DNA of 58,341 nucleotides from Ignisphaera sp. (GTDB lineage: Archaea; Thermoproteota; Thermoprotei_A; Sulfolobales; Ignisphaeraceae): positions 1 to 58,341 of the forward strand of contig JAWAHS010000009.1 of NCBI GenBank assembly GCA_038889075.1, in the 5' to 3' direction. The position numbers and the translations under genes are program-made. Shown in pieces: positions 2,039 to 56,398 of the stretch. The first letter of the stretch is position 1. The number at the start of each line of letters is the position of its first letter. The notes below the pieces were generated by a model. It had not been told where the DNA came from. It searched no databases and saw nothing but the letters and a program-made list of their open reading frames with translations.

Positions 2039-2955
2039 AACCACTTCACTGCATCGAGTATATTGTGTAGAAGTTCATCTGCTATTCTATCCATGGATTC
2101 CACAGTTTCTGCACCTATATGGGGAGTGACTATAACCTTGGGGTGGGCTATGAGTCGTCGGTATATCTCATCCCTCGGTGGTTCCTGCTCCATTACATCA
2201 AGGGCAACACCGCCCAGCCTGTCTAGATGTCTTATAAGGGCTCGTGCATTAACTACCTCTCCACGACTGGTATTGATTATTACAGCACCATCCTTCATAA
2301 GAGATAGCTCGTAGTCGTCTATCATGTGGTATGTAAGTGGTGTTAGAGGTACATGTAGTGTTACTATATCGCTTTCTTTTAAAAGCTCCTCAAAGTTCAC
2401 CTGCACACCCCCTAGCTCCCTAACATCCTTAGATACATCCCTTACATCGTGTACAAGAATGTTCATACCAAATATCTTTGCATATCTTGCAACTCTACTA
2501 CCAATTCTTCCAAAACCTACAATACCTAGATTTTTTCCATAGAGTTCTCTTCCAATGAAGATTCCTTTAGGCCACTCGCCTAGCTTAACTAGATTAATGT
2601 AGTTATAGATATTTCTAAAAACCACTATCATAAGACCTATTGTCAACTCAACAACACTTATACAGGATGCGTTTGGAGCGTTTACAACTGAAATACCCTT
2701 CTTAATCGCGTATTCAACATCAACATTGTCTAAACCAATTCCATATCTAGCTAGTACTCTTAGTCTTTCACCAGCGTCTATCACATCTTTATCGATTCTA
2801 AGCCTGCCTCTAAACACGAGGATACTATACTTGTTGATTATCTCTAGGAGATCACTCCTTTCCAGACCGGGTCTGTAGTCGACACCAAAGCCTCTTCTAC
2901 TAAGTTCGTTTAGAAGTTTTTCTGAAACTCTATCAATTATAAGTACATTTTGCAT
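2035..2955 (-). CDS. serA: D-3-phosphoglycerate dehydrogenase, short form without ACT domain
   Basis: GIGLDNVD, GFGRIG Rossmann motif, INTSRG, LDV, TPHIGA; adjacent aminotransferase. Confidence 0.8.
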   Translation of the reverse strand: MQNVLIIDRVSEKLLNELSRRGFGVDYRPGLERSDLLEIINKYSILVFRGRLRIDKDVIDAGERLRVLARYGIGLDNVDVEYAIKKGISVVNAPNASCISVVELTIGLMIVVFRNIYNYINLVKLGEWPKGIFIGRELYGKNLGIVGFGRIGSRVARYAKIFGMNILVHDVRDVSKDVRELGGVQVNFEELLKESDIVTLHVPLTPLTYHMIDDYELSLMKDGAVIINTSRGEVVNARALIRHLDRLGGVALDVMEQEPPRDEIYRRLIAHPKVIVTPHIGAETVESMDRIADELLHNILDAVKWL

Positions 2956-2963
2956 TCCGACAA
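2937..2963 (-). other. Candidate uORF M-S-E-C-K-M-Y-L overlapping the serA start
   Basis: GGTGG SD, 7 nt, then TTG TCG GAA TGC AAA ATG TAC TTA TAA; the serA ATG is in its -1 frame, 15 nt from the SD. Confidence 0.45.
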
Positions 2964-3003
2964 AGATCTACCACCAACATGTAGTAATTGGTACAGTGTT
3001 TGG

Positions 3004-3011
3004 TATATAAA
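3004..3011 (-). promoter_or_regulatory. TATA box of the serA operon
   Basis: TTTATATA about 30 nt upstream of the SD. Confidence 0.55.
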
Positions 3012-3225
3012 TCTAGCTGGTAAATACGATCTAAATAAGTTTAATGAGTATATATAGATTGGGTAGATTCCATATAGGTGCAGATTCCACATACCCTACA
3101 TTATAAATGCCACGCATTCACCATGATGACCATCCTAGAATTCGCACCATTAAACGATTAGATACTTATTTAAAGGCTGTACAACATATAGGAAAACAAC
3201 CATGTGGTGAAAGTGGTGTAGTGTT

Positions 3226-4536
3226 GTGGAGTTAGATGGGGGACAGTACTACAGGGATATATATCCATTTACAGATGTTCCACGATTTATAGTCGGTTCT
3301 AGGGAATTGAGTGAAAACGTAGGCAAGGTATATCTTACAGATACTACGCTTAGAGACGGTCAACAGGGCTGGAGAGTATTCACAGTTGAGGAGTGTGAGA
3401 AAATATATGAGCTTCTTGCTGATATAGGTGGCAAAGGTGCTATCGATAGTACCGAGGTATTTCTCTATACTGAAAAGGATAGAGAATCTGCCAAGAAGCT
3501 CCTAAGCTATGGGTATAAATACCCCAAAGTTATAGCATGGATACGAGCCACACTCTCAGATCTCCAGCTAGTTATCGATTCTAAAATAGATGAAGCCGTT
3601 ATACTCATGTCCATTTCGGACTATCATATAAGATACAAGTTCAATGCATCACGCGAAGAAGTCATTAGCAAGTATCTTGAAGTTGCTGAAAGGGCTCTGG
3701 GCCACGGGATAACGATTAGATGCTCTCTGGAAGATATAACTAGGGCAGATATAAATGGTTTGGTAATACCGTTTGTAAAGAAGCTTCTCACACTTGGTGA
3801 AAGGTACAGAGTGCCAATAAAGATAAAATTGCCAGACACACTCGGCCTCGGTCTACCATTTCCAGAGGTTCCGCTACCGAGAGGTATACCAGCAATAGTG
3901 CAGAGTATAAGGAGGGCTACAAATATACCACAGGAATACATAGAATTCCATGGACATAACGACTTTGGGCTAGTTGTAGCAAATCATCTAGCTGCATGGA
4001 TATATGGAGCTGCAGCAGCAAACTGTACGTTACTAGGTATTGGTGAAAGAGCTGGCAACTGTCCCCTCGAGGTCATGGCAATACACTATGCAGGATTAAG
4101 AGGGCAGAATAACATCAATTTAAAGGCTCTGCCAAGGATTGCAGAACTATTTGAACACATGGGCCATAGATTGATAGAGCACTATCCGATTGTCGGTAGG
4201 AATGCATTCAGAACAAAAGCAGGTATTCATGCAGATGGTCTTCTCAAGAATCCCGAGGTCTACCTTCCATTTGATCCAATTAAGGTAGTAGGTATACCCT
4301 ATTCGGTAGCTATAACACCGTACTCTGGCAGATCAGCAGTGCTGTTATGGCTTCGAAACTACCTTGGGCTAAACCATCTAAGTAAGGATGATCCACGGAT
4401 AAATTACATCTATAACGAAATTGTCGAGCTCTATAATAGGAGTGGTAGAACAGAGCCTCTAACGGATGGTGAAATGTTCTTAATTGTGGGCAAGTACTTT
4501 CCTGAGGTGAACAAGGCTAGGAAGGAGAGTAGCTAG
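3226..4536 (+). CDS. Re-citrate synthase-like DRE-TIM metallolyase (LeuA/homocitrate synthase superfamily)
   Basis: TDTTLRDGQQ (not RDGEQ), YRDIYPFTDVP N-terminus, WIRA, SDYHI, EDITRAD, HGHNDFG, GIGERAGN, resembling clostridial Re-citrate synthase as I recall it. Confidence 0.75.
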   Translation: MELDGGQYYRDIYPFTDVPRFIVGSRELSENVGKVYLTDTTLRDGQQGWRVFTVEECEKIYELLADIGGKGAIDSTEVFLYTEKDRESAKKLLSYGYKYPKVIAWIRATLSDLQLVIDSKIDEAVILMSISDYHIRYKFNASREEVISKYLEVAERALGHGITIRCSLEDITRADINGLVIPFVKKLLTLGERYRVPIKIKLPDTLGLGLPFPEVPLPRGIPAIVQSIRRATNIPQEYIEFHGHNDFGLVVANHLAAWIYGAAAANCTLLGIGERAGNCPLEVMAIHYAGLRGQNNINLKALPRIAELFEHMGHRLIEHYPIVGRNAFRTKAGIHADGLLKNPEVYLPFDPIKVVGIPYSVAITPYSGRSAVLLWLRNYLGLNHLSKDDPRINYIYNEIVELYNRSGRTEPLTDGEMFLIVGKYFPEVNKARKESS

Positions 4537-4590
4537 CCAACAATCTATTTTGTCGATTTATGTGGAGTAACCCCATTTTAGGGATAGGAA

Positions 4591-5844
4591 ATGGGTCTTA
4601 TAGACCGGATTGTATCGCAGGTATTGCAAAGGGATGTTACGCCGGGGGAGGTAGCTGTAGTTAGAATCGACTTGGTGTATGCTCAAGACGGCACGGCACC
4701 TCTTGTTATAGATGTTGTTGAAAATGAATTGAAGATGGAAAGCCTTGCTGCAGCGGATAGAGGCTACTTTTTCATAGATCACCTAGCACCAGCACCACAC
4801 ATACCGGCAGCCTCCGTACATAAAAAAATGAGAAACTTTGCTAGAAGATATGGTTTAAAGCTCTTCGATGCTGGGTATGGCATAAGCCATCAAATTGTTG
4901 TTGAAGAGGGTATAGCTAGACCAGGTATGGTTGCTGTAGGAGCCGATAGCCATACTCCAACAATCGGAGCCGTAGGAGTCTACGCAACCGGTGTTGGTAG
5001 CACCGATGCAGCTATTGCAATGGTGTACGGCGAACTCTGGCTAAGAATTCCAGAAACAGTAAAAATAGTTTTGACAGGAACCATCCCTAGGGGAATCTAT
5101 AGCAAGGACATAATACTGAATATAATAGGCGAATTTAAGACAGATGGTATGATTGGTAAAGCTGTAGAATTTCATGGAAATGTACTTACGGATTTATCAA
5201 TAGATTCGCGCATGACCATAACAAATATGTGTACTGAAATGGGTGCAGAATCAGCTATAATCCCAATTGATGGAGTTGCATTAAAATGGCTTAACGAACG
5301 GGGATATACGGTAGCGAGAAGGATTGATACAGAAAATCTTGGGGAGTACATCGATACAGTGTCAATTGATGTATCAAAGTTAGAGCCTACGGTTGCAGTA
5401 CCACCTGATGTAGATAATGTTGTAAGCGTAGATGAAGTTGAAGGTGTAGAAGTGGATCAGGTTTTCATAGGTTCTTGTACAAATGGTAGGTTAGAGGATA
5501 TAGAAGTGGTAGCTAGAATTTTAAAAAATAGGAGGGTTAGCGAGAGAACTAGATGCATCGTTGCTCCAGCCTCTAGAAGGGTATATATGGATGCTCTCAG
5601 AATGGGGTATATAGATATACTTATTCGATCAGGTTGTATAGTAGCTCCCCCAACCTGTGGACCCTGTGTTGGCGCTCACATGGGTATACTGGCAGAGGGT
5701 GAGGTAGCCATTGCTACAACCAATAGGAATTTCACCGGCAGAATGGGGCATAGAGAGAGCAAGGTGTATCTAGCATCGCCAGCTACAGCAGCTGCTTCTG
5801 CGATAGAGGGTAGAATAGCAGATCCAAGAAAATACCTCTCTTAG
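4591..5844 (+). CDS. LeuC/HacA-type (homo)aconitase / isopropylmalate isomerase large subunit
   Basis: QDGT, IDH, GADSHT, GSCTNGR, CGPCVG, TTNRNF; three 4Fe-4S cysteines. Confidence 0.9.
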   Translation: MGLIDRIVSQVLQRDVTPGEVAVVRIDLVYAQDGTAPLVIDVVENELKMESLAAADRGYFFIDHLAPAPHIPAASVHKKMRNFARRYGLKLFDAGYGISHQIVVEEGIARPGMVAVGADSHTPTIGAVGVYATGVGSTDAAIAMVYGELWLRIPETVKIVLTGTIPRGIYSKDIILNIIGEFKTDGMIGKAVEFHGNVLTDLSIDSRMTITNMCTEMGAESAIIPIDGVALKWLNERGYTVARRIDTENLGEYIDTVSIDVSKLEPTVAVPPDVDNVVSVDEVEGVEVDQVFIGSCTNGRLEDIEVVARILKNRRVSERTRCIVAPASRRVYMDALRMGYIDILIRSGCIVAPPTCGPCVGAHMGILAEGEVAIATTNRNFTGRMGHRESKVYLASPATAAASAIEGRIADPRKYLS

Positions 5845-5854
5845 GTGATGGAAT

Positions 5855-6376
5855 ATGATTAAACAGGGTAGATGCTGGAAACTGGGAGATAATATAAGTA
5901 CAGACCATATAATATCGGGTAAGTACAAGTTCGAGGCTATAAATGATATCAATAGAATGCTCGTGCATCTACTTGAGGAGGTTATACCAGAGTTCTATAA
6001 ATTAGTTAGACCAGGGGATATAATAGTTGCAGGGAGAAACTTTGGAAAGGGGTCTAGCAGGGAGCAGGCACCAAGACTTCTAAAGATGGCTGGAGTAGGA
6101 GCAGTTATTGCAAAGAGTTTTGCTCACATTTTCTATAGAAATTCAATAAATATTGGACTACCAGTTATAATAGCTAAAACAATCCCAGATGTAACACAGA
6201 ATGGCGATATCATAGAGATTAATTTGGTAGAGGGGTACGTGAAAAATATTACAAGGAATGTAGTGGAACCGATACACCCATATCCAAAATTCATCGAACA
6301 GCTCCTAAATGCAGGAGGTATAATTGAATACATAAAAAGATATGGGAGACCTCCATGGCGAGAAAGTACAGGGTAG
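5855..6376 (+). CDS. LeuD/HacB-type small subunit
   Basis: [35 protein letters not shown]. Confidence 0.9.
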
Positions 6377-7383
6377 GCGTAGTAAAAGGTGATGGAATAG
6401 GTCCAGAAATAGTTGAGGCTACAATAGATATTCTCAATTCATTAGATCTGAATATCTCCTTCATAGAGCTAGAAGCAGGCTACGGCTACTACCAAAAAAC
6501 CGGCAGATCTATAGAAGAGAACTTCTTCGATAAGGTTAAGGAGCTCGACGCAATACTAAAAGGACCCCTCTATACACCACCCAATGTTAGGGAATTCAAA
6601 AGTGTAAATATTTTAATTAGAAGAGAGCTTGATCTATATGCTAATGTAAGACCCTTTAGAAGTTTTGAAGGAATTTCTCCCAGGAATTTCGATATTGTAC
6701 TTATTAGGGAAAATACTGAGGACGTCTATGTGGGGATTGAGGGAAGGTATAGGGATAAGGCTGTATCTCTAAGGATAATAACTGGTGAGGGTTCTAGAAG
6801 AATAGCAAAATTTGCCTTTAGATACGCTATTCAAAGGGGCTTCAATAGAGTTACAGTCATACACAAGGCAAACATTCTAAAGGAGACTGATGGACTATTT
6901 CGAGAAACCTTTTATATGGTTGCTAAAGAATATCCAAATGTTTTAGCAGATGAAATGATAGTCGATACTGCTGCATATACTATTGTTAGGAACCCTGAAA
7001 GATTACAGATACTCCTTGCACCCAATCTCTATGGCGATATATTAGCGGATCTCCTAGCAGGTATGGTTGGAAGCCTAGGTCTATGTGGTTCAGCTCAGAT
7101 AGGGGAAAATATTGCTGTATTTGAACCAGTACATGGTGTAGCTCTAGATATAGCTGGAAAGGGTATTGCAAATCCTATCGGTGAAATACTATCAGCTAAA
7201 ATGATGCTTGAATACATAGGACAGCGGTATAATGACGGTAAACTCATTAAAGTTTCTGAAAAGATTGAAGAAGCGGTACATATAGTAACTAGTAGGAGGA
7301 TATGGACGCCTGATTTGGGGGGAAGTAATAGAACGAATGATGTTGTAGAAGCAATAAAACGCACTCTTACAGAGTTGCTGTAA
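6355..7383 (+). CDS. Isocitrate/homoisocitrate dehydrogenase family enzyme, IDH-like
   Basis: [32 protein letters not shown] (S-x-N as in IDH), [24 protein letters not shown]. Confidence 0.85.
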
Positions 7384-7416
7384 TAGCTCTATGGCGCTGG
7401 GGGATTCATGGAAATA

Positions 7417-7424
7417 TTTTTAAA
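7417..7424 (+). promoter_or_regulatory. TATA box of thrC-ppcA
   Basis: TTTTTAAA preceded by GAAA, about 27 nt before the GGTGA SD at 7451. Confidence 0.55.
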
Positions 7425-7459
7425 CCGCAGACCTTAAGTAGTAGAGTTGTGGTGAACCT

Positions 7460-8683
7460 CTTGGAAACATAGGTAATTTAAATGAAGCAGTAACTAGAAG
7501 AATATTCAGAGAAGGGGTTCTCCTAAGATGCATACAGTGCGGATACACATACGATCCGGATCCATTCACAATAATATGTCCCAGATGTAGAGGATTACTA
7601 GAGGTGGTAATGCCTAGCATAACAGATTTTGATATGAAAACTGCTAGAATGAGAAGATTTGGTGTATGGAGGTATAGAGAGCTTCTGCCACTAAACGATA
7701 AAGTAACTCCGGTAACACTTAATGAAGGAGGGACGCCATTGATACCGCTGACGAGGGCTATCACTGGATCCTTTAGAGTTTATGTAAAGTTTGAAGGTGG
7801 CAATCCTACAGGGAGTTTTAAGGACAGAGGGATGACAGTAGGAGTAACGATAGCTAAGAGTATTGGTGTTGAAGGGGTTATTGTTGCAAGTACAGGTAAT
7901 ACAGCAGCATCTGCAGCAGCTTATGCAGCTAGAGCGGGTTTAAAGTGCATTGTTGTATTACCTAGGGGAGCTGTAGCCAAGGGTAAGGTAGCTCAGGCAC
8001 TACTACATGGAGCAGAAATTAGAGAAGTTGATGGTGTATTCGATGATGCATTGGAAGACGTATTTACAGAGGTGGTCATGAATGGTGGACGGAAACTGTA
8101 TCCACTAAATTCATATAATCCATGGCGCTTAGAAGGTCAGAAAACAATAGCATTTGAAATCGTTGATGAGCTCGGCTCCGCACCAGACACCGTAATCGTA
8201 CCAGTTGGCAACGCAGGTAATATATCCGCTATTTGGAAGGGATTCAAGGAGCTCTACAGCTATGGCTTAATAAACCGACTTCCTAGAATGATTGGCGTCC
8301 AAGCGACCGGTTCGGCTCCACTTGCAATAACATGGGAATCTAAAGTAGATAAACTCCATGTTATAGAGAATCCACAGACTATAGCTTCAGCTATAAGAAT
8401 TGGTAAACCTGTAAACTGGTTAAAGGCACTAAAGGCTGTTAAGGAGTCCAATGGTGCCTTCATAAAGGTGACAGACGATGAGATTCTGGCTGCAATGAGG
8501 ATGCTAGCTGTATTGGAAGGTATAGGTGTTGAACCGGCTAGTGCTGCATCGTTTGCAGGTTTTATAAAACTAGCTAATAGAGGTCTCATAGATAAAGATG
8601 AAGTTGTTGTTCTGATAGCAACAGGACATGCTCTGAAGGATCCAGATATAATACTCAGTAAAATTATTATAGGGGTGCCGTAG
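7460..8683 (+). CDS. thrC: Threonine synthase with N-terminal zinc ribbon; true start unresolved
   Basis: NPTGSFKDRG, ASTGNT, EGQKT, PVGNAGN. The frame is open from 7445 and encodes LRCIQCGYTY..CPRCRGLLEV upstream of the first NTG (7604). Confidence 0.9.
   Translation, partial: LGNIGNLNEAVTRRIFREGVLLRCIQCGYTYDPDPFTIICPRCRGLLEVVMPSITDFDMKTARMRRFGVWRYRELLPLNDKVTPVTLNEGGTPLIPLTRAITGSFRVYVKFEGGNPTGSFKDRGMTVGVTIAKSIGVEGVIVASTGNTAASAAAYAARAGLKCIVVLPRGAVAKGKVAQALLHGAEIREVDGVFDDALEDVFTEVVMNGGRKLYPLNSYNPWRLEGQKTIAFEIVDELGSAPDTVIVPVGNAGNISAIWKGFKELYSYGLINRLPRMIGVQATGSAPLAITWESKVDKLHVIENPQTIASAIRIGKPVNWLKALKAVKESNGAFIKVTDDEILAAMRMLAVLEGIGVEPASAASFAGFIKLANRGLIDKDEVVVLIATGHALKDPDIILSKIIIGVP
7461..7472 (+). 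other. Candidate uORF M-E-T in front of thrC
   Basis: GGTGA SD (7451-7455), 5 nt, then TTG GAA ACA TAG; the thrC frame is -1 relative to it. Confidence 0.55.
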
Positions 8684-8703
8684 GCTAATATAGAAGAAAA
8701 GAG

Positions 8704-10131
8704 ATGGTGTACAATAGACTCGGAATGGTTAGAGCGATAATGATACCTAAGCTTATGTGTACACAACATCCAGATTCAACAGTAAAGGTAACAGTTCAAG
8801 AGGAGGTTAATGAAGCAATACAGAGCTATACTATGTATGGTTGTGAGGAGATAATGTCGGATTACGAAGGGAAGCTGACACCATATGCACAGCCTAAAGA
8901 TATAATTATGAAAGCAATAGAGTTGGGTATACCAATTGGTGATAGGCTGTACATCACACCAAGGGTACCCAATCCCAAACTCGAGGACTTCGATAGAGTT
9001 GCACTAACCTTAGAAGCGTCTCTCATAGCAAACTACTACTCGTATATACACCTAGGGACTCAAGCAGTAAAGTGGATCATTTTACCAATGGTCGAGACAA
9101 CAGATGTTGTTAGATTGATCCAGAGACTCATTATAAGAAAGTCGAAGATTCTATGTGAGGAAATGAATGTTCCGTGTCCATTAATGCAACTGATACCCTT
9201 AATCGAAGATTCCTCAAGGCTTATACATGTACATGAATATATCACAGGTCTATATAGTATCCTAAAAGAATTCAATGCTGATTTAGACAATCTAAGGGTA
9301 TTCCTAGGTAAGAGTGATAGTGCTACTAAAAGTGGGCACATAGCTTCTGCACTATCTCTAATATATGCACTTCATAGAATTAGTGAAATAGATAAAGAAC
9401 TTGATGTAAACATAAAGCCGATAATAGGAATGGGTTCTCCGCCATTTAGAGGAGGAATTAACAATCCGAGACTTGTAGATATGGAGGTGGAGCAGTATAA
9501 AGGTTTCTCAACAGTAACAATACAATCAGCAGTGAGATACGATGTTACATACACGGATTACCAAAAGGTGCAGTCAGTTCTATTAAATAACATAGATGGA
9601 GTACCAAGAAGAGTTGATCCAGAAATAATCCAACTTATTGAAAATGCTACGCTGAGATATAGAACTCTGGTAGCTAAATACATCGATATAGTGAATAAAT
9701 ACGCTATGACCATTCCAACAACTAGGGATAGAGTATCGTGGAGGGAGTATGGAAGGAGCATCATCTTAGAGGATAAGATGCTCAGCACACCTAGGGCCAT
9801 CATATATACAGCAACATGGTATGTACTCGGGGTACCGCCACTCTTACTAGATGCGGACTTCATTATAGAGGCATACAAGAAGGACGTCATTGATGATATA
9901 GTTAAGTATATACCATATATAAGGAGGGAGTGGGAATATGAGGTACAGTTCTATGTACCTCATGTAGCAGAGAAGAGGCTTGGTAAAGAAATTGTGTCAA
10001 AAATTAATGAGGCAATAGATGTAATGGGGATAAAGCATGAACCGATTGAACTATACAGTAAACTTATAGAATTAAATCCAATAGAACCATACATACTCTC
10101 GCTAGGAAAGATAAGGGGATTCCTAGGCTGA
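8704..10131 (+). CDS. ppcA: Archaeal-type phosphoenolpyruvate carboxylase
   Basis: IPKLMCTQHPD, DYEGK, TPRVPNP, RVFLGKSD, GSPPFRG, TIQSA, PRAI. Confidence 0.92.
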   Translation: MVYNRLGMVRAIMIPKLMCTQHPDSTVKVTVQEEVNEAIQSYTMYGCEEIMSDYEGKLTPYAQPKDIIMKAIELGIPIGDRLYITPRVPNPKLEDFDRVALTLEASLIANYYSYIHLGTQAVKWIILPMVETTDVVRLIQRLIIRKSKILCEEMNVPCPLMQLIPLIEDSSRLIHVHEYITGLYSILKEFNADLDNLRVFLGKSDSATKSGHIASALSLIYALHRISEIDKELDVNIKPIIGMGSPPFRGGINNPRLVDMEVEQYKGFSTVTIQSAVRYDVTYTDYQKVQSVLLNNIDGVPRRVDPEIIQLIENATLRYRTLVAKYIDIVNKYAMTIPTTRDRVSWREYGRSIILEDKMLSTPRAIIYTATWYVLGVPPLLLDADFIIEAYKKDVIDDIVKYIPYIRREWEYEVQFYVPHVAEKRLGKEIVSKINEAIDVMGIKHEPIELYSKLIELNPIEPYILSLGKIRGFLG

Positions 10132-10359
10132 AAAGTGCTAGTAATCCCCTAATTAAGTAAACGAATACAGCTATACTCGTATCGTAGGTGAAAACTATTT
10201 TAATCTTAGAATAGTTTTTATCGATAGGCATTTGTAGCCTTAATCAATGGCTTACATGATGAATAATCCGGTTACTGAGAAATGATGTACCCCTAAAGCT
10301 GAACAGAATGTATGATCATAGCTTAAAAAGACTGTAGATACATAGTTTTACGATCTAAA

Positions 10360-12027: not shown

Positions 12028-12042
12028 GGTATAGAGAGGAAA

Positions 12043-16859: not shown

Positions 16860-17005
16860 AGAGCAATCTGTTCAATAGGGGTTCAGCTCTGATATAGGTT
16901 TATATTGGTTGATGTCATTGCCTCATCTCTTGTTCCCCTGCATTCCAGTCGGGTTCTCATTGGGCTTGGGGGTGTTTAGGGTGATCCCGGGCACCCCACA
17001 TCTTG
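16860..17005 (-). ncRNA. Putative TnpB omegaRNA/reRNA scaffold plus flanking guide (boundaries approximate)
   Basis: GC-rich tract overlapping the tnpB 3' end (GATGTGGGGTGCCCGGGATCACCCTAAAC...GCAGGGGAAC); the position is typical for TnpB guide RNAs. Confidence 0.45.
16881..16914. repeat. Inverted repeat at the tnpB 3' end of the element
   Basis: Reverse complement CATCAACCAATATAAACCTATATCAGAGCTGAAC matches 18330-18364 at 21 of the first 23 nt. Confidence 0.75.
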
Positions 17006-18122
17006 AGTACCTGTAGAATAGGTTTATGCATGCAACCACATCTCTATCTCCTGTGGATCCACATCTACTGCATCCCAGTACTCTACCACTGCTATCCTCT
17101 AACCTGCTTCCACATCTCGGACATGTTGATGAAGTCTTTTCTGGGTTAACATATCTAACTGCTAGTCCTCTCTCCAGTACTTCATATACTATGGTGAACT
17201 GCATCTTTCTGTAGAACCATAGCGATAGCTTTTTGTTGAAATTGCTACCTCTATTCACGTTACTCCTGAGATTGCTTAGGTTTTCAAGAACTATGGTTGA
17301 GCTGTGCTCAACAGCTAGCTCAGCAATATTATCTCCAACTTTGTGAGCATAGTCCCAGGCTATGCTCCTTATTCTCTCACCATGTCTTCTAATCGCTCTC
17401 CTAACACCTCTGATGAACCTCCACGATCTAGAGTACCTTCTCTGAATCCTCTCAATCCATATCCTATGCGTCAACATCCTCCTGAGAGGTGTCTTGAACC
17501 GCTTCAGCTTCAGCAACTTTCCACTAGATGTGAACACAGCTAGTGTAACATTGTCGAAGTTAACATCGATAGCCATTACGGTTCTAGTTCTCCTTGATTT
17601 AACTGTTCTCCTGAAGTATACCGCTACATAGACCTCGTCTTCAACTACCTTCACAGCTATCTCATAGTTACTCCACTCTTTGTATTTCTCTATCCTATCA
17701 ATAGATGTTAGTAGTTTTAATATAACCTCTTCATTATTGTGTATCTTTAGGGTAAGCGTTCTATTCTCTAGATCAAGCTTGTAGTTGTATCTATCTACTC
17801 TAGCTGTTAGTTTTCTGAGAACTGGTTTCTTTCCACTATTCCTCTTACCAGCTTTAACAACTGTTTTAGCGTAGATATATATCTGCTTAACGTGGTGTGC
17901 TCTAAAACCAGATTCCCTAAGCTCTGAGTAGAGCATTCTGTGTAGAGCTTTAATTGAAGGTATTTCGCTTAAACTCCACAACCTGTTTACAGCTAGCTGA
18001 ACAGCATCACGATAGAGCTTCAGAAACTCGAGTAGAGTAAGATAGTCATCACCACCCTTGGGGAGAGCCCTCATCCTAAGAGCCTCAACAAGCTCTCCAC
18101 CCCTCACCGAGTAGCTCACCAC
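16923..18122 (-). CDS. tnpB: RNA-guided endonuclease TnpB
   Basis: RuvC-I AIDVN, RuvC-II VLENL, zinc finger CPRC..CSRC, RuvC-III DRDVVACINL; D-E-D triad present. Confidence 0.93.
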   Translation of the reverse strand: MVSYSVRGGELVEALRMRALPKGGDDYLTLLEFLKLYRDAVQLAVNRLWSLSEIPSIKALHRMLYSELRESGFRAHHVKQIYIYAKTVVKAGKRNSGKKPVLRKLTARVDRYNYKLDLENRTLTLKIHNNEEVILKLLTSIDRIEKYKEWSNYEIAVKVVEDEVYVAVYFRRTVKSRRTRTVMAIDVNFDNVTLAVFTSSGKLLKLKRFKTPLRRMLTHRIWIERIQRRYSRSWRFIRGVRRAIRRHGERIRSIAWDYAHKVGDNIAELAVEHSSTIVLENLSNLRSNVNRGSNFNKKLSLWFYRKMQFTIVYEVLERGLAVRYVNPEKTSSTCPRCGSRLEDSSGRVLGCSRCGSTGDRDVVACINLFYRYSRCGVPGITLNTPKPNENPTGMQGNKR

Positions 18123-18383: not shown

Positions 18384-19442
18384 CTAGACCAAACCCTTTT
18401 TAACAATAACTTCAGCTATAAGTACACCAGTCCCTGCAGCACCCCTTAATGTATTATGTCCGAGGACTACGTATTTGACCCCATTTAATGCATAATCCCT
18501 TCTCACCCTTCCGACAACAACACTCATGCCCCCTCCTTCCATTCTATCAAATCTTGGCTGAGGTCTATCAATCTCTCTTCTAACCACAATGGGTCTTTCC
18601 GGAGCTGTGGGAAGGCCTAGACCCCTTATCTTATTGGTCTTAAACTCTTCCATAGATTTCACTAAATTCTCAATATCTACATCTCTTTCAGTTTCAACAA
18701 AAACGGCCTCCGTATGCCCCTCTAACACCATTACTCTATGACAACTTGCCGATACAGTGAAACCAGCATTTAGTTCTATTCCACTAGATTTCAGATCTCC
18801 TAATATCTTTCTAGATTCATTCTCTACTTTTTCCTCTTCACCTTCTATAAATGGTATCAAGTTATCCAGTATGAACATGGATGGCACTCCAGTTAGACCT
18901 GCCCCAGAAATGGCTTGCATCGTCGATACAATGACTCTTTTAATACCAAATTCATCCAGTATAGGTTTTAGTGAAAGAGTTAATATAGCAGTCGTACAAT
19001 TGGGGACTTTGATGATAGCTCCATTCCAGTTCCTGATTCTACGTTGATATTCTATAACTTCTATATGGTCAGCATTAACCTCAGGATTGATTAACGGTAT
19101 ATCTGGTTCAAGCCGCATCGGGCTGGAATTGGATACGATAACCACCCCTTTTTTCGCCAATTCGATTTCTATTTCTCTAGCTATTTCAGCTGGAAGTGCT
19201 GTAAATGCAATATCAATGTTCTCTTTTACTATATCGCTTGATATGGGGGATAGTTCAATGTCAGAGACACTCTTTGGTATAGGTTTTTCAACAACCCATT
19301 TAACGGCTTCGCAATATTTCTTACCTATATTTCTCTCTGATGCTGCTACAATAGCTAGTTCGAACCACGGATGTTCTCCTAATAGAGATACAAATCTCTG
19401 ACCTACAATTCCTGTAGCACCTAGTACGGCTACACGTTTCAC
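18384..19442 (-). CDS. asd: Aspartate-semialdehyde dehydrogenase (archaeal type)
   Basis: GATGIVGQ, PNCTT catalytic Cys, QAISGAG, GHNTLRGAAG. Confidence 0.95.
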   Translation of the reverse strand: MKRVAVLGATGIVGQRFVSLLGEHPWFELAIVAASERNIGKKYCEAVKWVVEKPIPKSVSDIELSPISSDIVKENIDIAFTALPAEIAREIEIELAKKGVVIVSNSSPMRLEPDIPLINPEVNADHIEVIEYQRRIRNWNGAIIKVPNCTTAILTLSLKPILDEFGIKRVIVSTMQAISGAGLTGVPSMFILDNLIPFIEGEEEKVENESRKILGDLKSSGIELNAGFTVSASCHRVMVLEGHTEAVFVETERDVDIENLVKSMEEFKTNKIRGLGLPTAPERPIVVRREIDRPQPRFDRMEGGGMSVVVGRVRRDYALNGVKYVVLGHNTLRGAAGTGVLIAEVIVKKGLV

Positions 19443-20578
19443 CTCTCATCACCTTCAAACAATTCCCTATGAAGTAGGGAGAGGAGCTTAAATTCGTATG
19501 TAGGACTAACGTATATTAGTAGCGATGGTCTATATATATATGACTGCACACCTAGCACATCCATGCCATTCTCATCAATTACTTCGAGAACTCTTCTTAT
19601 AAACCGTGTTGTTGAAGTTCCTTCGCCAACGATAGCTATATATGGCATGTTCTGCGTCGACCTATTCATAACCACTTTAGGTCCCCAGAGCTCTCTTGGA
19701 ATTTCTTTAACTATTTCAGTTCCAAACCTAGACCATGAACCTATAACTAATTTAGAGCTATAGAATTTCTCCAAAGGTTCGAACGCTTTAGGATTAATTC
19801 TCTTTGCACCGTGAAGGGCAGCTTCAAGGGACTCTCTATAGCTCATAACTTTAACAAGTTTAGCGGTTTTAATAGTATCCGGATCGGTAGTCATTATACC
19901 ATCGACATCTGTTACCAGGTATACTCTATCAATATTCAGCAGTGAGGCTATCGCTGTTGCTGTATAGTCAGAGCCTCCCCTGCCAAGGGTTGTTATTCTA
20001 CCATCCATAGTAGCTCCTATAAAACCCTCTACTACAGGGATTGCAGGATTGTCAATAATAGACGAGTATAGTTTCTCGAGATTAGCAGATGTTGAAATGT
20101 AGTCGATTGAAGCATCACTAAAGTTTTCATTAGTTACAATTAGATCATTTGCATGAAGTTCAAGTGCATTGACACCGATAGATTCAAGGGCACCGACCAT
20201 TAATATCTTACTTATTCTCTCGCCAAATGATAATAACAAATCGTATATAGATAGATCAACACCACCTCCACCTATAGCGTTAGCAACCGTTTTCAATCGT
20301 TTAAGTTCTTCTTCTACCCTCCTAATAATTTTTACGCTGTTCAATTCTCTAGCTATTTCTAGATACTTTTCGTTTACATAATTTAGTGCATTTTGAGAAC
20401 CTTTAGCGACCTCTATGAGTTTATCAGTTATACCCTTTGCAGCAGAGACAACTATTATTGTTTTATACCCATTTTCAATGAATATCTCTTTAATCTTTTG
20501 GGCTGAATATAAATATGATTTAGAGTCCTTTAATAATGAGCCTCCTATTTTAGTTACACACAATTGCTTACCATTCAT
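19439..20578 (-). CDS. lysC: Aspartate kinase
   Basis: KIGGS, VVSA, GER, TTLGRGGSDYTA, TDVDG; start ATG 20578 after GGTGA. Confidence 0.92.
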   Translation of the reverse strand: MNGKQLCVTKIGGSLLKDSKSYLYSAQKIKEIFIENGYKTIIVVSAAKGITDKLIEVAKGSQNALNYVNEKYLEIARELNSVKIIRRVEEELKRLKTVANAIGGGGVDLSIYDLLLSFGERISKILMVGALESIGVNALELHANDLIVTNENFSDASIDYISTSANLEKLYSSIIDNPAIPVVEGFIGATMDGRITTLGRGGSDYTATAIASLLNIDRVYLVTDVDGIMTTDPDTIKTAKLVKVMSYRESLEAALHGAKRINPKAFEPLEKFYSSKLVIGSWSRFGTEIVKEIPRELWGPKVVMNRSTQNMPYIAIVGEGTSTTRFIRRVLEVIDENGMDVLGVQSYIYRPSLLIYVSPTYEFKLLSLLHRELFEGDER

Positions 20579-20592
20579 ATAGTTCACCTATT

Positions 20593-22587: not shown

Positions 22588-22605
22588 CTATAGTGTTTGG
22601 CGCAT
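22588..22605 (-). other. Candidate uORF M-R-Q-T-L in front of thrB
   Basis: GAGGTGG SD, 5 nt, then ATG CGC CAA ACA CTA TAG; the thrB frame is -1 and open across it. Confidence 0.55.
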
Positions 22606-22657
22606 TACATCCACCTCTAAAGGTTTAGATGTTGTAAACAATAAACAGAGTACAGTG

Positions 22658-25382: not shown

Positions 25383-25396
25383 AGGAGGTGAGGTTT

Positions 25397-29195: not shown

Positions 29196-29202
29196 ATTAA
29201 AC

Positions 29203-43462: not shown

Positions 43463-43463
43463 A

Positions 43464-45487: not shown

Positions 45488-45552
45488 CAAATCTTTTATC
45501 GTATAGTAAACTACAATATTAATTAATAGGATACAGGATTAGTGTGTTGAAA

Positions 45553-46533: not shown

Positions 46534-46666
46534 TTCAATTTCACTAGAAACTTCTGCGAATCTGATATTGAGATGAATTTGTGTAGATTGTGTGTAGATT
46601 GAATTGTTGTAGAATTCTCTACAGCTTATAGAATACCACGGTAGGGTATCTCTAGCGATCCCAGTA

Positions 46667-47317: not shown

Positions 47318-47331
47318 AATCGCCGAAATCG

Positions 47332-48570
47332 TTACTGGTTTAAATAAATTCTTCCCCCAATAATCTTTAAGTCTTTCCAAAAGTTAGGGTTGCTCTTGGA
47401 TACGCACTCAGCTTGATCTATAATCCCACCGCTCTTAAGAGCTATCGACGCTGCCATCATAGCTATTCTATGGTCGTCTGGGCAGACAATTTCGCCCTCC
47501 CTAGTATTACCCCCAGTAATCTCAATAAACTCACCTCTATCATAGGCTTCAATACCAAAGCCTCTTAGTGTTGAAACTATGGTATTCCTTCGATCGCTTT
47601 CTTTGATCGATAACCTTTCGATACCTCTAATAACTGTAGTCCCTCTAGCTACCCCAGCCAAAGGTGCTATGGATGGGGCGAGATCTGGGGAATCATCAAC
47701 ATCCACTTCTATTGCTCTATAGCTATCACCAGCCTCAACATACCAAATGCCATCTCTATATATGCTTACGGCATTCATAGATCTATATATATCGATTATG
47801 CTATGGTCACCAAAAAAGCTATAGGGCTTTGGTAATCCATGTATAGATAGATAGCCACCTGTAAGTAGAGCAGCTACAGCGTAGAATGAAGCTAAAAGAT
47901 AGTCGCCAGGTATGGAGCCCTTATATGGGGCAATCTCCTTGGATGCTTCGACATCAATTCTATTACCATGTATATGAACGGTTCCGCCTAGACTGTTTAT
48001 AATCTCAGCAGTCAAATTTATATAGCTTCTAGAGGAGATCTTCCCTCTAATGTTTATACTACCACCTCCAGCCATTATCAATGCTATCATAAGACCAGTT
48101 ATGTACTGGCTACTCTCACCGCCATATATATCGATACAGGTATCTCTAACCCTTCCCTCCATGGTAATGGGAAGGGTGGTACCAGAAAAGCGAATGCCTT
48201 TCTCACTAAGGGCATCAACTATGGCATTCAATGGTCTTCTTCTAAGACCTTTACCACCATCGATGGTGATTCTACCACCTACTACAGCCGCTATTGGTAT
48301 GAAGATTCTTAAAACAGTTGCAGATCCTCTAAAATATACATAGTCTCTATACAGTTTGAGAAATGACGGTTTATAGAACCTTCTTCCGTCAGTAATAACA
48401 TTGAATACGCCTATGGCATCTAGAGCATCTAGAACATCCTCCGATAAGGTTAGATTATCTATTGTTATATTGGTTAGTAGAGATAGGAACAACAATCTTA
48501 TTGCCCAGCTTTTAGATTGAGGCGCAGATATAGAACCTTTGATGGTGGATCTCTCTAGGACAACCCTCAC
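47332..48570 (-). CDS. aroA: EPSP synthase
   Basis: QSKS, LRRRP, SSQY, PGD, DSPD, KESDR, DDHRIAM, KSNP. Confidence 0.92.
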   Translation of the reverse strand: MRVVLERSTIKGSISAPQSKSWAIRLLFLSLLTNITIDNLTLSEDVLDALDAIGVFNVITDGRRFYKPSFLKLYRDYVYFRGSATVLRIFIPIAAVVGGRITIDGGKGLRRRPLNAIVDALSEKGIRFSGTTLPITMEGRVRDTCIDIYGGESSQYITGLMIALIMAGGGSINIRGKISSRSYINLTAEIINSLGGTVHIHGNRIDVEASKEIAPYKGSIPGDYLLASFYAVAALLTGGYLSIHGLPKPYSFFGDHSIIDIYRSMNAVSIYRDGIWYVEAGDSYRAIEVDVDDSPDLAPSIAPLAGVARGTTVIRGIERLSIKESDRRNTIVSTLRGFGIEAYDRGEFIEITGGNTREGEIVCPDDHRIAMMAASIALKSGGIIDQAECVSKSNPNFWKDLKIIGGRIYLNQ

Positions 48571-48809
48571 TTCTCATCACCAATAGTTAGATTTTGTTTC
48601 ATGGAGACTATAGGGATTCGCCGATCTAGGAATAAGAAGAGCTGCCGATCCAGAGGCTGATGGTAGATAGAGTGAGGTGAATAGATCGCTTGGGAGTAGA
48701 TATGTGATCTGATGGTGTACCAGATCTTTGAGAAACGATGCATAGAGCTACAGAACTTGATCGAAGAGCGGGAGCTTAAGAGTGAGGAAACCAGAGGTAT
48801 GAAACACAT
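48567..48809 (-). CDS. 80-aa orphan ORF coupled to aroK and aroA (may be non-functional)
   Basis: ATG overlaps the aroK TAA with a GGTG SD upstream; its stop overlaps the aroA GTG; no recognisable motif. Confidence 0.3.
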   Translation of the reverse strand: MCFIPLVSSLLSSRSSIKFCSSMHRFSKIWYTIRSHIYSQAIYSPHSIYHQPLDRQLFLFLDRRIPIVSMKQNLTIGDEK

Positions 48810-49612
48810 TATATATCCACACCGGATGAAATTCTAGCAGGTCTGACTATCTTTACAGAACCATAGTTAGCGAAATATTCTGCTAAAGGACCACCGTCAC
48901 CTTCTCTACATACTGCAAATATCGTTGGCCCATTGCCTGATACACCAGCAGCTAAAGCACCTAATTCGATAGCCCTTCTAACTATATCTTCATCATACCC
49001 CATTATTCTGGCAATAAACAAGCCATTCAATGTCATTGCTCTAAATATATCGCCCGAGTAAGCTAATTCAAATATATATTTAAATAAACTGTGATGTCTT
49101 CTCATTTTTTCAACATCTATATTCTTTCTAGTACCCTTGAATAGCAGAACCACATCAAGATCGTCTCTAAAATCGGTAACCCTTAGTATGGACATGTTAA
49201 GATTGTCTGTAAATACTATGCCTCCATAGAAAGCAGCTGATGCATCATCTAGTGCACCAGTAATAGATACCCCAGCTATTTTTGAGAGTTCAGCGGCTAA
49301 TCTAGGAATAGAGGGTTCATATATACCGAATCTATCGATTATAGATCTGATTGTCGCTACGGCAACGGCGCTACTGCTTTTAAGACCACTTGATTGCGGA
49401 ATCTCTGAGTATATATCTACCCTAGATGGAGGTAGAGTATATTTCTCTACAAAATAGTCTATTATTGTCTCTATAAGAGGTGAAGGATAGGTACATACAT
49501 TCTCATTTTCACATACGCTAACCTCGACATAGGTTTTAAGATCAATAGCCATTACAGAGCCGAGCCACGCTGGTATAGCATTGACTATCGAAATCCCTCC
49601 GTATGCGTACAT
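48809..49612 (-). CDS. aroK: Archaeal (GHMP-type) shikimate kinase
   Basis: [39 protein letters not shown]. Confidence 0.92.
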
Positions 49613-53570: not shown

Positions 53571-54610
53571 ATTTGTCTACCTATACTTTCAATTACATCT
53601 TTTAAAACATCAACAGCTTCCTTCCTTACGAATACTGAAAAAGGATTGGTCTTCTGAATTTCGAAAATAACATTCTCTATATGCTTAAGTCTTTCGACAA
53701 TAGTCCTAACTTCCCTATATGTAGGCGTTGAAAGTTTATCTGGATAAATATGTAGTTCCTGGGAAAGTTTTTTCAAAGCCTTTGAAAAAGCAGTGAGATA
53801 GAGGTGTGTAAGAACCTGCACAATGGCCATAGCCTTCTCATGCTCCTCAAGGTCTACTACAACTGGTTCTAATCCAGCAGAAAACCATAGATCAACAACA
53901 TCTTGAAGAACAGTAGCACCCGTCTTGGACGGTATTATAGCAATCTTCTCACCAATAGGTGGTGTAAGAGGTCCGAACAATGGATGCACCGATACGTACA
54001 TGAAGTTGTTCTGCAGGGATTCGCCTTCAAGATAATGGAATACCCATGATTTAGACGACAGGATGTCCATGGCTACTTTATTTCTAAGATGTACAAATAA
54101 TTTGTTTACATAACCGTTCTTATAAGCCTCGAATGACAAAGCCAAGACTATGTATTCACCAAATTCTATAGCTGATTCCAAATCCATATATCTACATCCA
54201 AGAGTTTTGGCCAGCTCTTCAGCTTTATCTAAATTTCTACCAGTTATTACCACTTCGTGACCTACCTTAACAAGTTGCCTTGCAAGTACACTAGCCATAT
54301 TACCATATCCAATGAATGTTACCCGTTTCTGCAACTTCTTCCTACCCCTTAAATTGATCTGCAGACTCTTTGAATATTTTATTAACAAATCCGCTAGGAT
54401 TGAAACAATGTCAACTGGTATGCCATATTCTACAGCGAGCCTTCTCCAATTCATTTTAACCATCAACTCTCGTTCATCATCAGAAATACCTCTACCTTCA
54501 GCATTCTTCACTTCAGCAATTCTCTGAACCATCTCAAGTCTCTCACCTATTAATCGAACTATTTCTCTGTCAATTTCATCTATACGTTTCCTAAGCTCAT
54601 CTATTGTCAT
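53567..54610 (-). CDS. tyrA: Chorismate mutase-prephenate dehydrogenase fusion
   Basis: N-terminal [19 protein letters not shown] (AroQ), [33 protein letters not shown]. Confidence 0.88.
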
Positions 54611-55550
54611 ACTTGATTACCTCCAGACAGGCTTTTACAATGGATCTACTATCTATATTGAAGTATTCTAGGAGCTCCCTTACGCTCTTTGCCGACCTAC
54701 CAAAGGTTCTAGCACCTATAAATCTCATTGGAACTGGATACCTTTCAGCAACAACTTCTGCAACAGCGCTTCCTATACCTCCATAAACCACGTGTTCCTC
54801 AACGGTTACAATACGACCTGTAGCCCTTGCAGCTCTTTCAATACTTTCAACATCGATGGGTTTAACTGTTAGAAGGTTGATAACAGAGGTGCTAATACCC
54901 ATTTTCTCCAGCATCTCAGCCGCAGTTAAAGCCTCATACAATATTGGACCAGCACCAACTATTGTAACATCATAACCGTCTCTCAGTGTATATGCTTTTC
55001 CAAGAGCAAATTCGTAATCATGTCCGACAGTCACAGGTGGTGCATAATCCCTCCCAATTCTATAGTACACAGGTCCCCTTACATCAGCTACTATACTCCT
55101 CAGACTCCTCTTTATATCAGCTATATCTGCAGGAACCACAATATTCATATTTGGTATGGCACGCATAACCGCTATATCTTCAAGTGCTTGATGGCTCGAC
55201 CCATCTGCATGGTCGCTATAGCCAGCATGTGTAGCTATGATCTTTACATTTAGATTCATTCTAGCCACGGTATTTCTTATCTGTTCCCACGCCCTTAGAA
55301 CAAACATCGCGAATGCGGCTACTATAGGCTGTGCGCCAGCTGATGCTAACCCAGCGGCGAAGCCTATCATATGCTGCTCAGCTATTCCAACATTATAGTA
55401 TCTATCTGGAAACTTCTGACCAAATCTATATACTCTTGTTGGTCTTCCAACGTCAGCAGTTATTACCACGAGGTCTCTAACTTCCTCACCAAGGCTAGCC
55501 AGTATCTCTCCAACTACATCACGCATTCCAATGGATTGCTCTACTTTCAT
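54597..55550 (-). CDS. Transketolase C-terminal subunit
   Basis: GIAEQ, RAWEQIR, DGSSHQ..ED, EEH..GGIGS. Confidence 0.93.
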
Positions 55551-56349
55551 CCAGAGGCTCCTCTACAATCTGGTTAATGTTTTCATTGACTGTTTTTACT
55601 CCATGGTTAGCCACAGTTTTAGCAAAGATTACCGTAGGTCTATCCGATTCCAAAGCTTCATTGATAGTGCTCACAATACTTACTATATCATGACCATCAC
55701 ACCACAGGACTCTCCATCCAATAGCACTCCATACAAACGGTAAATAGTATTTTGATTTAACTACCTCAGTTTCACCATCGAGTTGAGAACCGTTCCAGTC
55801 AATTATAACTATAAGATTACTCAGCCTAAGCGTAGCTGCATGCGTTATTGCTTCCCATACCTGACCCTCATCCTGCTCGCCATCACCCATTACAACAAAT
55901 ACTCTTCCATTTCCATTTTTCAATTTAATCCAAGTAGCTATACCTATAGCAAAACTTATGCCTTGTCCGAGGCTACCCGTGGACATGTCTACACCCGGTA
56001 CACCTATATCGGGATGGTTCTGCAGGATAGAATTGATGCTGTTTATTTTGATAAGCTCCTCCTTTGATATAAGACCGATTTCAGCCAAAGTAGCATATAG
56101 AGCTGGGGCAGCGTGACCTTTGCTCAATATAAGCCAGTCTTTATTTAGGGAATCAACATCCCTCTTAATATATTTTGTTAGAAGAGTGGCTATTATATCT
56201 ATAGCGCTTAGAGAGGAAGCGATATGGATATGCTTGTCGTAACTGTACATTAGAACTAGATTCTTTCTGGCATTTGTAGTTACATTCTGAATCTGATTTA
56301 ATTCTTCACCAATGTTTTTCAGTATTGGAGTTGCATCTACCTTCACCAT
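55519..56349 (-). CDS. Transketolase N-terminal subunit
   Basis: [25 protein letters not shown] motif, DGHD. Confidence 0.93.
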
Positions 56350-56360
56350 TGAAATTCCAT
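56343..56360 (-). other. Candidate uORF M-E-F-Q-W at the head of the aromatic operon
   Basis: GGTGG SD, 5 nt, then ATG GAA TTT CAA TGG TGA; the transketolase ATG (56349) is nested in the -1 frame. Confidence 0.6.
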
Positions 56361-56398
56361 TTCGGCCACCACAGGACAGTATATTATACTGGTGTGCC

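Follow-up and report, generated by a model that had tools for sequence, protein, structure and literature searches.

The window analysed here is a whole contig of Ignisphaera sp. (JAWAHS010000009.1; 58,341 nucleotides (nt), or 58 kb) from an archaeal genome of 1.95 Mb with 39% G+C and a completeness of 99.6%. Gene content, assigned from Pfam and NCBIfam matches together with the positions of open reading frames (ORFs), includes serA, thrC, an operon headed by thrB, lysX and an aromatic operon headed by a split transketolase, and our subject is the very short upstream ORFs (uORFs) at the heads of these five units. The 16S rRNA 3' end reads ...GGATCACCTCCT, from which the Shine–Dalgarno (SD) consensus AGGAGGTGATCC follows. 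In our own set of 1846 ORFs for the genome, in-frame NTG codons (ATG, GTG and TTG taken together) peak 6–8 nt past the last G of GGTG (75, 72 and 47 matches). The original prediction held that at these five genes an SD at the usual spacing points to a mini-ORF rather than to the enzyme, and that the enzyme always lies in the −1 frame of that mini-ORF. All five uORFs are present in the sequence and their coordinates were confirmed; their NTG codons follow GGTG by 8 (serA), 6 (thrC), 6 (thrB), 7 (lysX) and 6 nt (aro), at the SD optimum of the genome, and the enzyme frame is −1 of the uORF at every site.

The serA gene (phosphoglycerate dehydrogenase family by Pfam and NCBIfam; 2035–2955, minus strand) has its leader at 2937–2975 of the same strand, with GGTG at 2975–2972, an 8-nt spacer and the uORF TTG TCG GAA TGC AAA ATG TAC TTA TAA at 2963–2937. 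The ORF in the −1 frame of this uORF extends to 2964, and in this genome serA also has an in-frame ATG at 2955. The thrC gene (threonine synthase by Pfam and NCBIfam; 7445–8683, plus strand), whose N-terminal zinc ribbon is encoded at 7529–7590, carries its leader at 7451–7472: GGTGA at 7451–7455, a 6-nt spacer and the uORF TTG GAA ACA TAG at 7461–7472. The proposed slip site is G_GAA_ACA (underscores separate uORF codons), with the Thr codon in the ribosomal A site. The thrC frame is open from 7445 (stop at 7442), and the −1 frame of the uORF runs over 7463–8683; between the stop at 7442 and a GTG at 7604 there is not a single in-frame ATG, GTG or TTG, and the zinc ribbon lies upstream of that GTG. 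An A/T-rich box, ATATTTTTAAA (7414–7424, plus strand), is likely the TATA element of the thrC unit, and a 'ttttttaacc'-like box is kept in orthologous thrC leaders. Archaeal TATA elements stand about 26 nt before the RNA start, and with this one, transcription of thrC would likely begin a few nt ahead of the SD.

The thrB-hom-aspartokinase-asd operon (22624–18384, minus strand; Pfam and NCBIfam), with thrB (homoserine kinase) as its first gene, has a leader at 22588–22617 on that strand that consists of GAGGTG at 22617–22612, a 6-nt spacer and the uORF ATG CGC CAA ACA CTA TAG at 22605–22588. Here the enzyme frame, −1 of the uORF, runs from 22603 and the proposed slip site is C_CAA_ACA. At the aromatic (shikimate) operon (56349–46667, minus strand) the leader occupies 56343–56370 on the same strand, with GGTG at 56370–56367, a 6-nt spacer and the uORF ATG GAA TTT CAA TGG TGA at 56360–56343; the interval assigned to the operon with this leader frame runs from 56358, and CAA_TGG overlaps the enzyme ATG at 56349. 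The lysX head (25384–25415, plus strand) consists of the SD GGAGGTGAGG at 25384–25393, an in-frame ATT at 25397–25399 and the out-of-frame TTG CCA AAG TTG GTA TAG at 25398–25415.

We compared orthologous gene heads, anchored on the NTG, from up to 16 species of the genus, whose proteins are 57–100% identical to those of this genome. The thrC leader reads GGTG-N6-(T/G)TG GAA ACA TA(G/A) in all 16 species, while the codons after this core differ freely; where TTG is exchanged for GTG, the enzyme frame changes from Leu to Arg and the uORF start codon is retained. At the thrB operon, ATG C(G/T)C CAA ACA NNN TAG is found in 10/10 species, nine by pattern and one (L045) by eye. The aro operon has ATG GAA TT(T/C) in 14/14, the remainder of the uORF varying so that its length ranges from 5 to 15 codons, and serA has T_TTG_TCG in 14/14, the conserved Ser codon being TCG, codon 2. 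A further gene with such a head lies on another contig of the genome (C2:355535) and encodes a class I/II aminotransferase to which no NCBIfam equivalog corresponds. In this genome 88 codons pass without an in-frame start, and T_TTG_GCA is present in all five orthologues; the leader codon is Ala (GCA), and the enzyme, which has no assigned substrate, does not enter the cognate comparison. The leader cores are thus conserved at the nucleotide level against freely diverging flanks, and both the uORFs and their cognate codons are kept at serA, thrC, thrB and aro, which supports the original prediction. Its further claim that four of the five sites carry X_XAA directly before a cognate codon holds for the conserved cores of thrC, thrB and aro. 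It does not hold for serA, where G_GAA_TGC occurs in only 3 of the 14 orthologues and the conserved core is T_TTG_TCG instead.

The lysX head behaves differently. Its 'ATTGCC' is invariant in all 15 genus orthologues, with the ATT 6 nt after GGTG, whereas the third codon of the TTG frame, proposed as a Lys sensor, encodes Lys in 8, Glu in 5, Ile in one and Ala in one. At the aligned position in other genera (G019, G022, G025 and G030), an in-frame TTG or GTG serves as the LysX start. lysX is thus most likely initiated at the in-frame AUU, or by a slip at the start codon, and would not be a Lys sensor. A link to proline, for which OCD-family and P5CR genes are both present in the genome, decides nothing.

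The same leader design was found at a sixth gene, trpB2 (NCBIfam NF009057, 695 bits against a cut-off of 366), with (A/T)TG NNC CAA TGG NNN followed by a stop in 11/11 loci of the genus and ATG AGC CAA TGG TAA in 6/6 members of a second paralogue group. Anthranilate synthase (PF00425) had no match in this genome, and TrpB2 with its Trp-type leader may work in indole salvage there. Beyond the genus, 13 of 14 thrC loci in family f3, centred on G020, have NTG GAA ACA or NTG NNC CAA AC(A/C); 15 loci were read and one (L262), masked by N, was left out of the tally. An even draw of 70 genomes across the class added the thrC leader in four more families and returned none in four others. Class-wide, the thrC leader is present at 39/54 loci in 6/10 families and the trpB2 leader at 40/43 loci in 8/10 families, and the tkt/aro leader of family f13 reads NTG..NNC CAA TGG in 3/3. 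The serA device is essentially genus-specific.

We then used a blind detector that takes an SD-like tetramer, a start codon 3–10 nt later in the +1 register of the enzyme, an X_XAA within five codons and a stop inside 20 codons, and reports the amino acid encoded by the codon after X_XAA. It returned Thr 39 times and Ala once at thrC loci, and Trp 40 times and nothing else at trpB2 loci, that is, the cognate codon in 79 of 80 detections; the other out-of-frame register, taken as a control, gave 1/54 at thrC and 0/43 at trpB2. One scaffold, NTG_NNC_CAA, carries ACA before thrC and thrB and TGG before trpB2. The Thr codons at thrC swap synonymously (ACA 32, ACC 6, ACG 1), and swaps are also seen among the start codons (TTG, GTG and ATG in thrC; ATG and TTG in trpB2) and the stops (TAG and TAA). 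Within X_XAA the two X positions co-vary: the base preceding CAA is C and that preceding GAA is G in 79/79 cases, including 51/51 in which the start codon does not force it, and a CAA-to-GAA change in trpB2 goes with a C-to-G change of the preceding base. In leaders whose second codon is the cognate one (serA and the aminotransferase), the start is TTG in 19/19, with a T before it. Codon rarity gives a mixed picture as an explanation, TCG being the rarest Ser codon of the genome (9%) and ACA a common codon.

A sceptical view of such sites is that they arise by chance, because the NNT-GNN arrangement makes out-of-frame NTG codons common and GGTG is frequent. The background of +1-frame NTG inside genes is indeed high, two of the five SDs in the window consist of the 4-nt core only, and several genome-wide matches proved false: those at Iso_dh, FGGY and TtuA have GGTG inside coding sequence downstream of a normal start, and a class II aminoacyl-tRNA synthetase (C6) has its real ATG upstream. 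However, a genome-wide count shows that an SD with an out-of-frame NTG is rare and enriched on the contig of the window. A +1-frame NTG at spacing 5–8 without an in-frame NTG at 4–10 accompanies only 29 of the 1212 GGTG matches at the heads of the 1846 ORFs. Six of these 29 are on this contig, to which 53 ORFs (3%) of the set belong. No genome-wide peak of out-of-frame NTG was seen at the SD optimum, so the arrangement is not a general habit of the genome. Together with the near-empty control register and the invariance of the leaders across 10–16 species and across families, these counts make chance an extremely unlikely explanation. Conservation refutes it for four of the five sites; it could account for details only, such as the GAA TGC of serA. 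The conserved cognate-codon leaders are almost certainly real functional elements.

Other candidates from the genome-wide search were set aside. An MFS transporter (C2:301751) and a 106-codon ORF on C10 with 'TTG GAA TGY' are ordinary genes with an in-frame ATG at spacing 10, and for the leader of an Mg-ATPase no close orthologue was found in the five genus genomes searched. A Trp-type leader, GAGGTG-N6-ATG CGC CAA TGG TAG, also heads a non-biosynthetic unit at C13:36481, an operon for ferredoxin, aldehyde:ferredoxin oxidoreductase and an SNF-family symporter, for which no orthologue was found at E ≤ 1e-30 in the five genus genomes searched.

Many of the enzymes have no start codon of their own. 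In 28 of 59 orthologues the stretch from the nearest upstream stop to the conserved protein core contains no canonical in-frame start: 8/16 for thrC, 6/10 for thrB, 10/14 for serA (counted before the KVLxxD strand), 1/14 for aro and 3/5 for the aminotransferase. The TGA within GGTGA is often itself an in-frame stop, 3–6 nt upstream. In thrC the distance from the NTG to the first zinc-ribbon Cys is 56, 59, 62, 68 or 74 nt, always 2 mod 3 (16/16), as expected if the stretch is translated in the −1 frame. An in-frame non-canonical start at the −1 triplet was rejected for thrC (CTT/CGT), thrB (AAT/GAT), and serA and the aminotransferase (TTT), and retained for lysX (ATT).

Artefacts were considered next. 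The window stretch is represented in 20 public runs, which belong to 11 studies. In three DNA runs of other studies, contigs extend across both the serA and the thrC leader without an indel, and a metatranscriptome contig spans serA and its uORF (2000–2971), likewise without one. A sequencing or assembly indel was rejected, as the same one-base offset is present in 10–16 independently assembled species and the DNA contigs of the three studies are free of indels. Transcriptional slippage or editing is unlikely as well: the runs measure just 3 nt and no indel is present in the RNA contig at serA, although the RNA contigs do not cover the thrC leader.

A related idea is that the offsets are real and old, one-base indels tolerated by constitutive low-level slippage or odd initiation, with the cognate codons present by coincidence or hitch-hiking. 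Comparison with other lineages gives this some substance. The serA of G096 (family f9) begins in frame at TTG TCG AGG ATG TAT AGG, and that of G111 (family f8) carries GGTGGTGTTAA-TTG TCG outside the enzyme frame, hinting that a single-base shift of an ordinary TTG-Ser start gave rise to the serA leader of the genus. At the position of ATTGCC in this genus, LysX of other genera has TTG GCC as its in-frame start. ThrC of family f2 (L281, L283 and L284) has an ordinary in-frame N-terminal extension ('...GDALGF...') in place of the leader, and its DNA, GGCGATGCCCTTGGA, resembles the SD-plus-uORF region of f3, GGTGATGCCCTTGGA, which suggests that the thrC leader and a coding extension interconvert in evolution. 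Frameshifting as a translational 'correction' of indels is also named in the abstract of Atkins et al. 2016. Passively tolerated indels, however, do not predict cognate codons in 79 of 80 blind detections or synonymous swaps that keep the amino acid, nor the same scaffold with different sensor codons at different pathways, nor a design that recurs in non-homologous genes (thrC, thrB, serA, tkt, trpB2) and persists across 6–8 families. We regard this explanation as decidedly unlikely.

In our interpretation, which we hold to be moderately probable, the leaders are amino-acid-sensing recoding sites: with the A site vacant at the cognate codon, the P-site tRNA would slip by −1 into the enzyme frame. 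The SD near the 5' end of the mRNA would recruit a ribosome, and initiation at the NTG would open a dead-end frame of 2–9 codons (5–15 at aro). One to three codons in, the P site would hold a slippery codon, G_GAA or C_CAA, or T_TTG at the start codon itself, and the A site the codon of the pathway end product: ACN at thrC and thrB, TCG at serA, TTY, often with TGG, at aro, and TGG at trpB2. When the cognate aminoacyl-tRNA is plentiful, the codon would be read, the ribosome would stop within a few codons and make no enzyme; when it is scarce, the A site would stay empty, the P-site tRNA would move back one base and the enzyme would be read in the −1 frame. The SD–anti-SD duplex, still 8–12 nt upstream of the P-site codon, probably helps the slip; SD-stimulated −1 shifts are known to obey a spacing rule. 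The sign of such feedback is right, plenty leading to termination and scarcity to enzyme. That many orthologues lack a start codon makes the −1 slip the most coherent of the variants in the original prediction, and it fits the conservation, cognate specificity, X_XAA pattern and start-less enzymes at serA, thrC, thrB and aro, although not at lysX. We infer the slip, its dependence on tRNA charging and the part played by the SD from leader anatomy, conservation, specificity, frame relation and missing starts. That the leaders sense aminoacyl-tRNA supply we consider likely.

Several observations weigh against this interpretation. The relatives compared are not independent samples, and the counts overstate the number of events. 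After the slip, re-pairing in the P site would keep positions 1 and 3 with the middle position mismatched (G_GAA to GGA, C_CAA to CCA), and at T_TTG a single pair of the initiator would survive. The Thr codon used most in the genome is ACA (47%), and three f3 thrC leaders have ATA or ACG instead of NTG. Not every amino-acid operon is involved: in this genome the heads of HCS-lys, lysW, lysY, argG, ilvB-N-C and the his operon have ordinary starts and no device, which does not bear out a general link to all such operons. The thrC leader is not covered by RNA contigs. Finally, all trpB2 loci, 13 of the 14 aro leaders and the thrC of family f13 have their own in-frame ATG or GTG; the slip is then not required at these loci, and another uORF-dependent mechanism could be general.

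The last point leads to the main rival, in which the uORF is regulatory without any frameshift: ribosomes would terminate and reinitiate at an in-frame ATG or GTG or at a near-cognate AUA or AUU, or the uORF would gate access to the start. Reinitiation after termination is an established mechanism at overlapping genes of archaea (Huber et al. 2019, as cited in a passage of PMC7531240). The placement of start-like codons agrees with it, as trpB2 always has its in-frame ATG 4–7 nt before the uORF stop, the f13 thrC has an ATG shortly after the uORF, and an in-frame ATA overlaps the stop (ATAG or ATAA) in 16/16 thrC and 9/10 thrB leaders, at lysX, and in the serA and aminotransferase of this genome. 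At thrC and thrB the overlap would fit AUA reinitiation too and is a point against the slip. The genome also seems to tolerate CTG, ATT and ATA starts at SD-optimal spacing elsewhere. At serA, however, the uORF ends inside the codons for the conserved first β-strand (KVLxxD), so that reinitiation cannot yield the full enzyme, and 10 of 14 orthologues have no start before the strand. The ATA is not universal either, since the thrB of G015 has TTA at the stop and f3 thrC leaders end over CTA or TTA. What is invariant is codons 2–3 rather than the stop region, as the variable length of the aro uORF illustrates, and reinitiation gives no role to the X_XAA covariation or to the invariant TTG of serA and the aminotransferase. 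Stalling at a hungry codon would moreover lower reinitiation, the wrong sign for a biosynthetic gene. Reinitiation could thus explain some loci, yet neither serA nor the conserved X_XAA core, and as a general account we judge it rather unlikely.

Another possibility is that the leader peptide acts on the mRNA, a stalled ribosome altering transcription termination or triggering processing, for example cleavage to a leaderless mRNA. Bacterial leader peptides act by stalling at cognate codons, as textbooks describe, and the enzyme AUG of trpB2 and aro lies inside the putative stall site. One metatranscriptome contig (run X16) bears on processing: in it, sequence from ~8773 (~8744–8773, within the gene for PEP carboxylase) is joined to 7473, the base that directly follows the stop codon of the thrC uORF, so that its match begins exactly behind the uORF. 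An assembly chimera, a circularised RNA and a processing end are all conceivable sources of this join, and a single chimeric-looking contig is weak evidence. On the other side, no terminator-like site was found in 7380–7700, and RNAalifold predicted 0 consensus pairs on 15 thrC leader sequences (L024, identical to L023, was left out). The uORF overlaps the enzyme ORF and leaves no room for an attenuator, and the 28 start-less enzymes stay unexplained. An effect on the mRNA is very unlikely on these grounds, and the want of conserved structure and terminator fits slippage of a single tRNA.

The remainder of the window and genome contributed further observations. The homocitrate synthase/homoaconitase/HICDH operon lies at 3226–7383, and just upstream of the homocitrate synthase GTG at 3226 are two mini-ORFs, ATG TGG TGA (3203–3211) and GTG TAG (3216–3221), which lie inside overlapping GGTG motifs and are probably due to chance. 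Within the thrB operon, homoserine dehydrogenase is encoded at 20593–21621, aspartokinase at 19439–20587 and aspartate-semialdehyde dehydrogenase at 18384–19442, all on the minus strand; a TnpB/Cas12f-like ORF (Pfam Cas12f1-like_TNB; 16923–18122, minus strand) stands between peptide transporter genes and the asd end of this operon. lysY/lysZ, lysW-X-J-K and argG are also in the window. In the aromatic operon the transketolase halves occupy 55519–56349 and 54597–55550, shikimate kinase 48809–49612 and EPSP synthase 47332–48570, again on the minus strand. The window has no Rfam match, and ARAGORN found no tRNA gene in it.

Unusual gene heads of other kinds also occur. A livF-like ABC ATPase (28482–29207, minus strand) has its P-loop upstream of the first ATG, GTG or TTG, with an in-frame CTG at 29195–29193 that follows GGTG by 8 nt (GGGTGAG, 29208–29202). 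On other contigs, start-less heads with CTG, ATT or ATA at SD-optimal spacing belong to a thymidylate kinase, a P-loop kinase, a GTPase and an HAD hydrolase, the GTPase head 'ATTGCT' resembling the 'ATTGCC' of lysX, and genome-wide there is a small excess of in-frame CTG at spacing 7–8. An archaeosine tRNA-guanine transglycosylase-like gene on C12 (plus strand, offset 33898) has no in-frame start and reads 'TTG T TTC GAG'; the enzyme, with the expected N-terminus MFEIKE..., lies +1 of this TTG, the sole one nearby. On C18 (plus strand, offset 24834) a 566-codon ORF for an ABC transporter permease is free of NTG over its first 120 codons and is preceded in the same frame by ATG CGA TAC TAA, which could reflect an in-frame stop, readthrough or a broken gene.

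With respect to known systems, the device resembles a bacterial leader peptide in its input and the prfB and antizyme frameshifts in its output, and has the defining features of neither. Like the leaders of bacterial attenuation (trpL, thrL, hisL, pheL), it is a very short 5' ORF with codons for the pathway's own amino acid; the codons conserved in this way are Thr at thrC and thrB, Ser at serA, Phe at aro and Trp at trpB2. In bacterial leader peptides the speed of the ribosome at cognate codons reports tRNA charging. The present leaders differ in having one sensor codon instead of a run and an archaeal host; in place of terminator and antiterminator hairpins, of which none was found, the leader overlaps the enzyme ORF out of frame, and the proposed output is a change of frame instead of transcription termination. 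With prfB (release factor 2) and antizyme they would share a slow A-site codon whose product-dependent decoding decides whether translation ends early or moves into the frame of the main ORF. In prfB, an upstream SD-like element takes part in the shift. Those shifts are +1, whereas the one proposed here is −1, and their sensor is a stop codon or polyamines rather than a sense codon read by aminoacyl-tRNA. Unlike in either of them, the event would occur 1–3 codons after initiation, with the initiating SD doubling as a putative stimulator.

A mechanistic parallel is leftward shifting at hungry codons (Gallant and Lindsley), together with the one-tRNA regime of dnaX, in which a vacant A site lets the P-site tRNA slip by −1 without downstream structure. 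According to passages in two reviews (PMC8211752, PMC5009743), one-tRNA slippage under aminoacyl-tRNA limitation needs no downstream stimulator. Such shifting is known from laboratory constructs and starvation experiments, whereas here it would be a conserved, selected device; of starvation-specific natural trans-frame products, Atkins et al. 2016 state in the relevant passage that 'no examples are known' (PMC5009743). Canonical −1 frameshifting likewise involves overlapping frames in −1 relation in one gene, with fucA1 of Saccharolobus solfataricus as an archaeal case, given in the corresponding passage of a 2021 review of archaeal recoding as the sole reported −1 case in Archaea (PMC8211752). 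The −1 enzyme frame in every leader and the orthologues with no start of their own agree with this class. Yet canonical sites need an X_XXY_YYZ heptamer and a hairpin or pseudoknot, whereas the heptamer is absent from the sites found here (G_GAA_ACN, C_CAA_ACN, G_GAA_TTY, C_CAA_TGG and T_TTG_TCG), at which the A-site tRNA could not re-pair, no pairs are predicted in the thrC leaders, and the nucleotides downstream of the leader core are not conserved. The site also stands, unlike in canonical cases, at the very start of translation, and the zero-frame product is a short dead end. Archaeal termination–reinitiation shares with these leaders a short upstream ORF with its stop overlapping or adjoining the next start region and an SD nearby; it differs in that nearly half of the enzymes here (28/59) have no canonical start and that the conserved bases are at uORF codons 2–3, not at the stop. 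No description of such leaders was found in searches of the open full-text literature.

Little is known of how archaea adjust the synthesis of amino acids to their supply by translational means, and we found no leader-peptide sensor described for them; hungry-codon frameshifting, for its part, has been known for decades as a laboratory error. Judged from the comparisons above, a slight balance of probability favours the view that a class of archaea uses hungry-codon −1 frameshifting as an amino-acid sensor, with many enzymes made only through the slip. If so, hungry-codon frameshifting would have its first natural regulatory use here, and archaea their first amino-acid sensor of the leader-peptide type; leader peptides and autoregulatory frameshifts would be joined in a device of only about 20 nt. 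The view would account for the truncation or wrong start assignment of thrC, thrB and serA by gene callers in these genomes, and it would be testable, as a family with many complete genomes (1.8–3.0 Mb) likewise carries the leaders. The device would also provide a compact, portable amino-acid-responsive switch. Even without the slip, the conserved cognate-codon leaders represent a new archaeal regulatory element.

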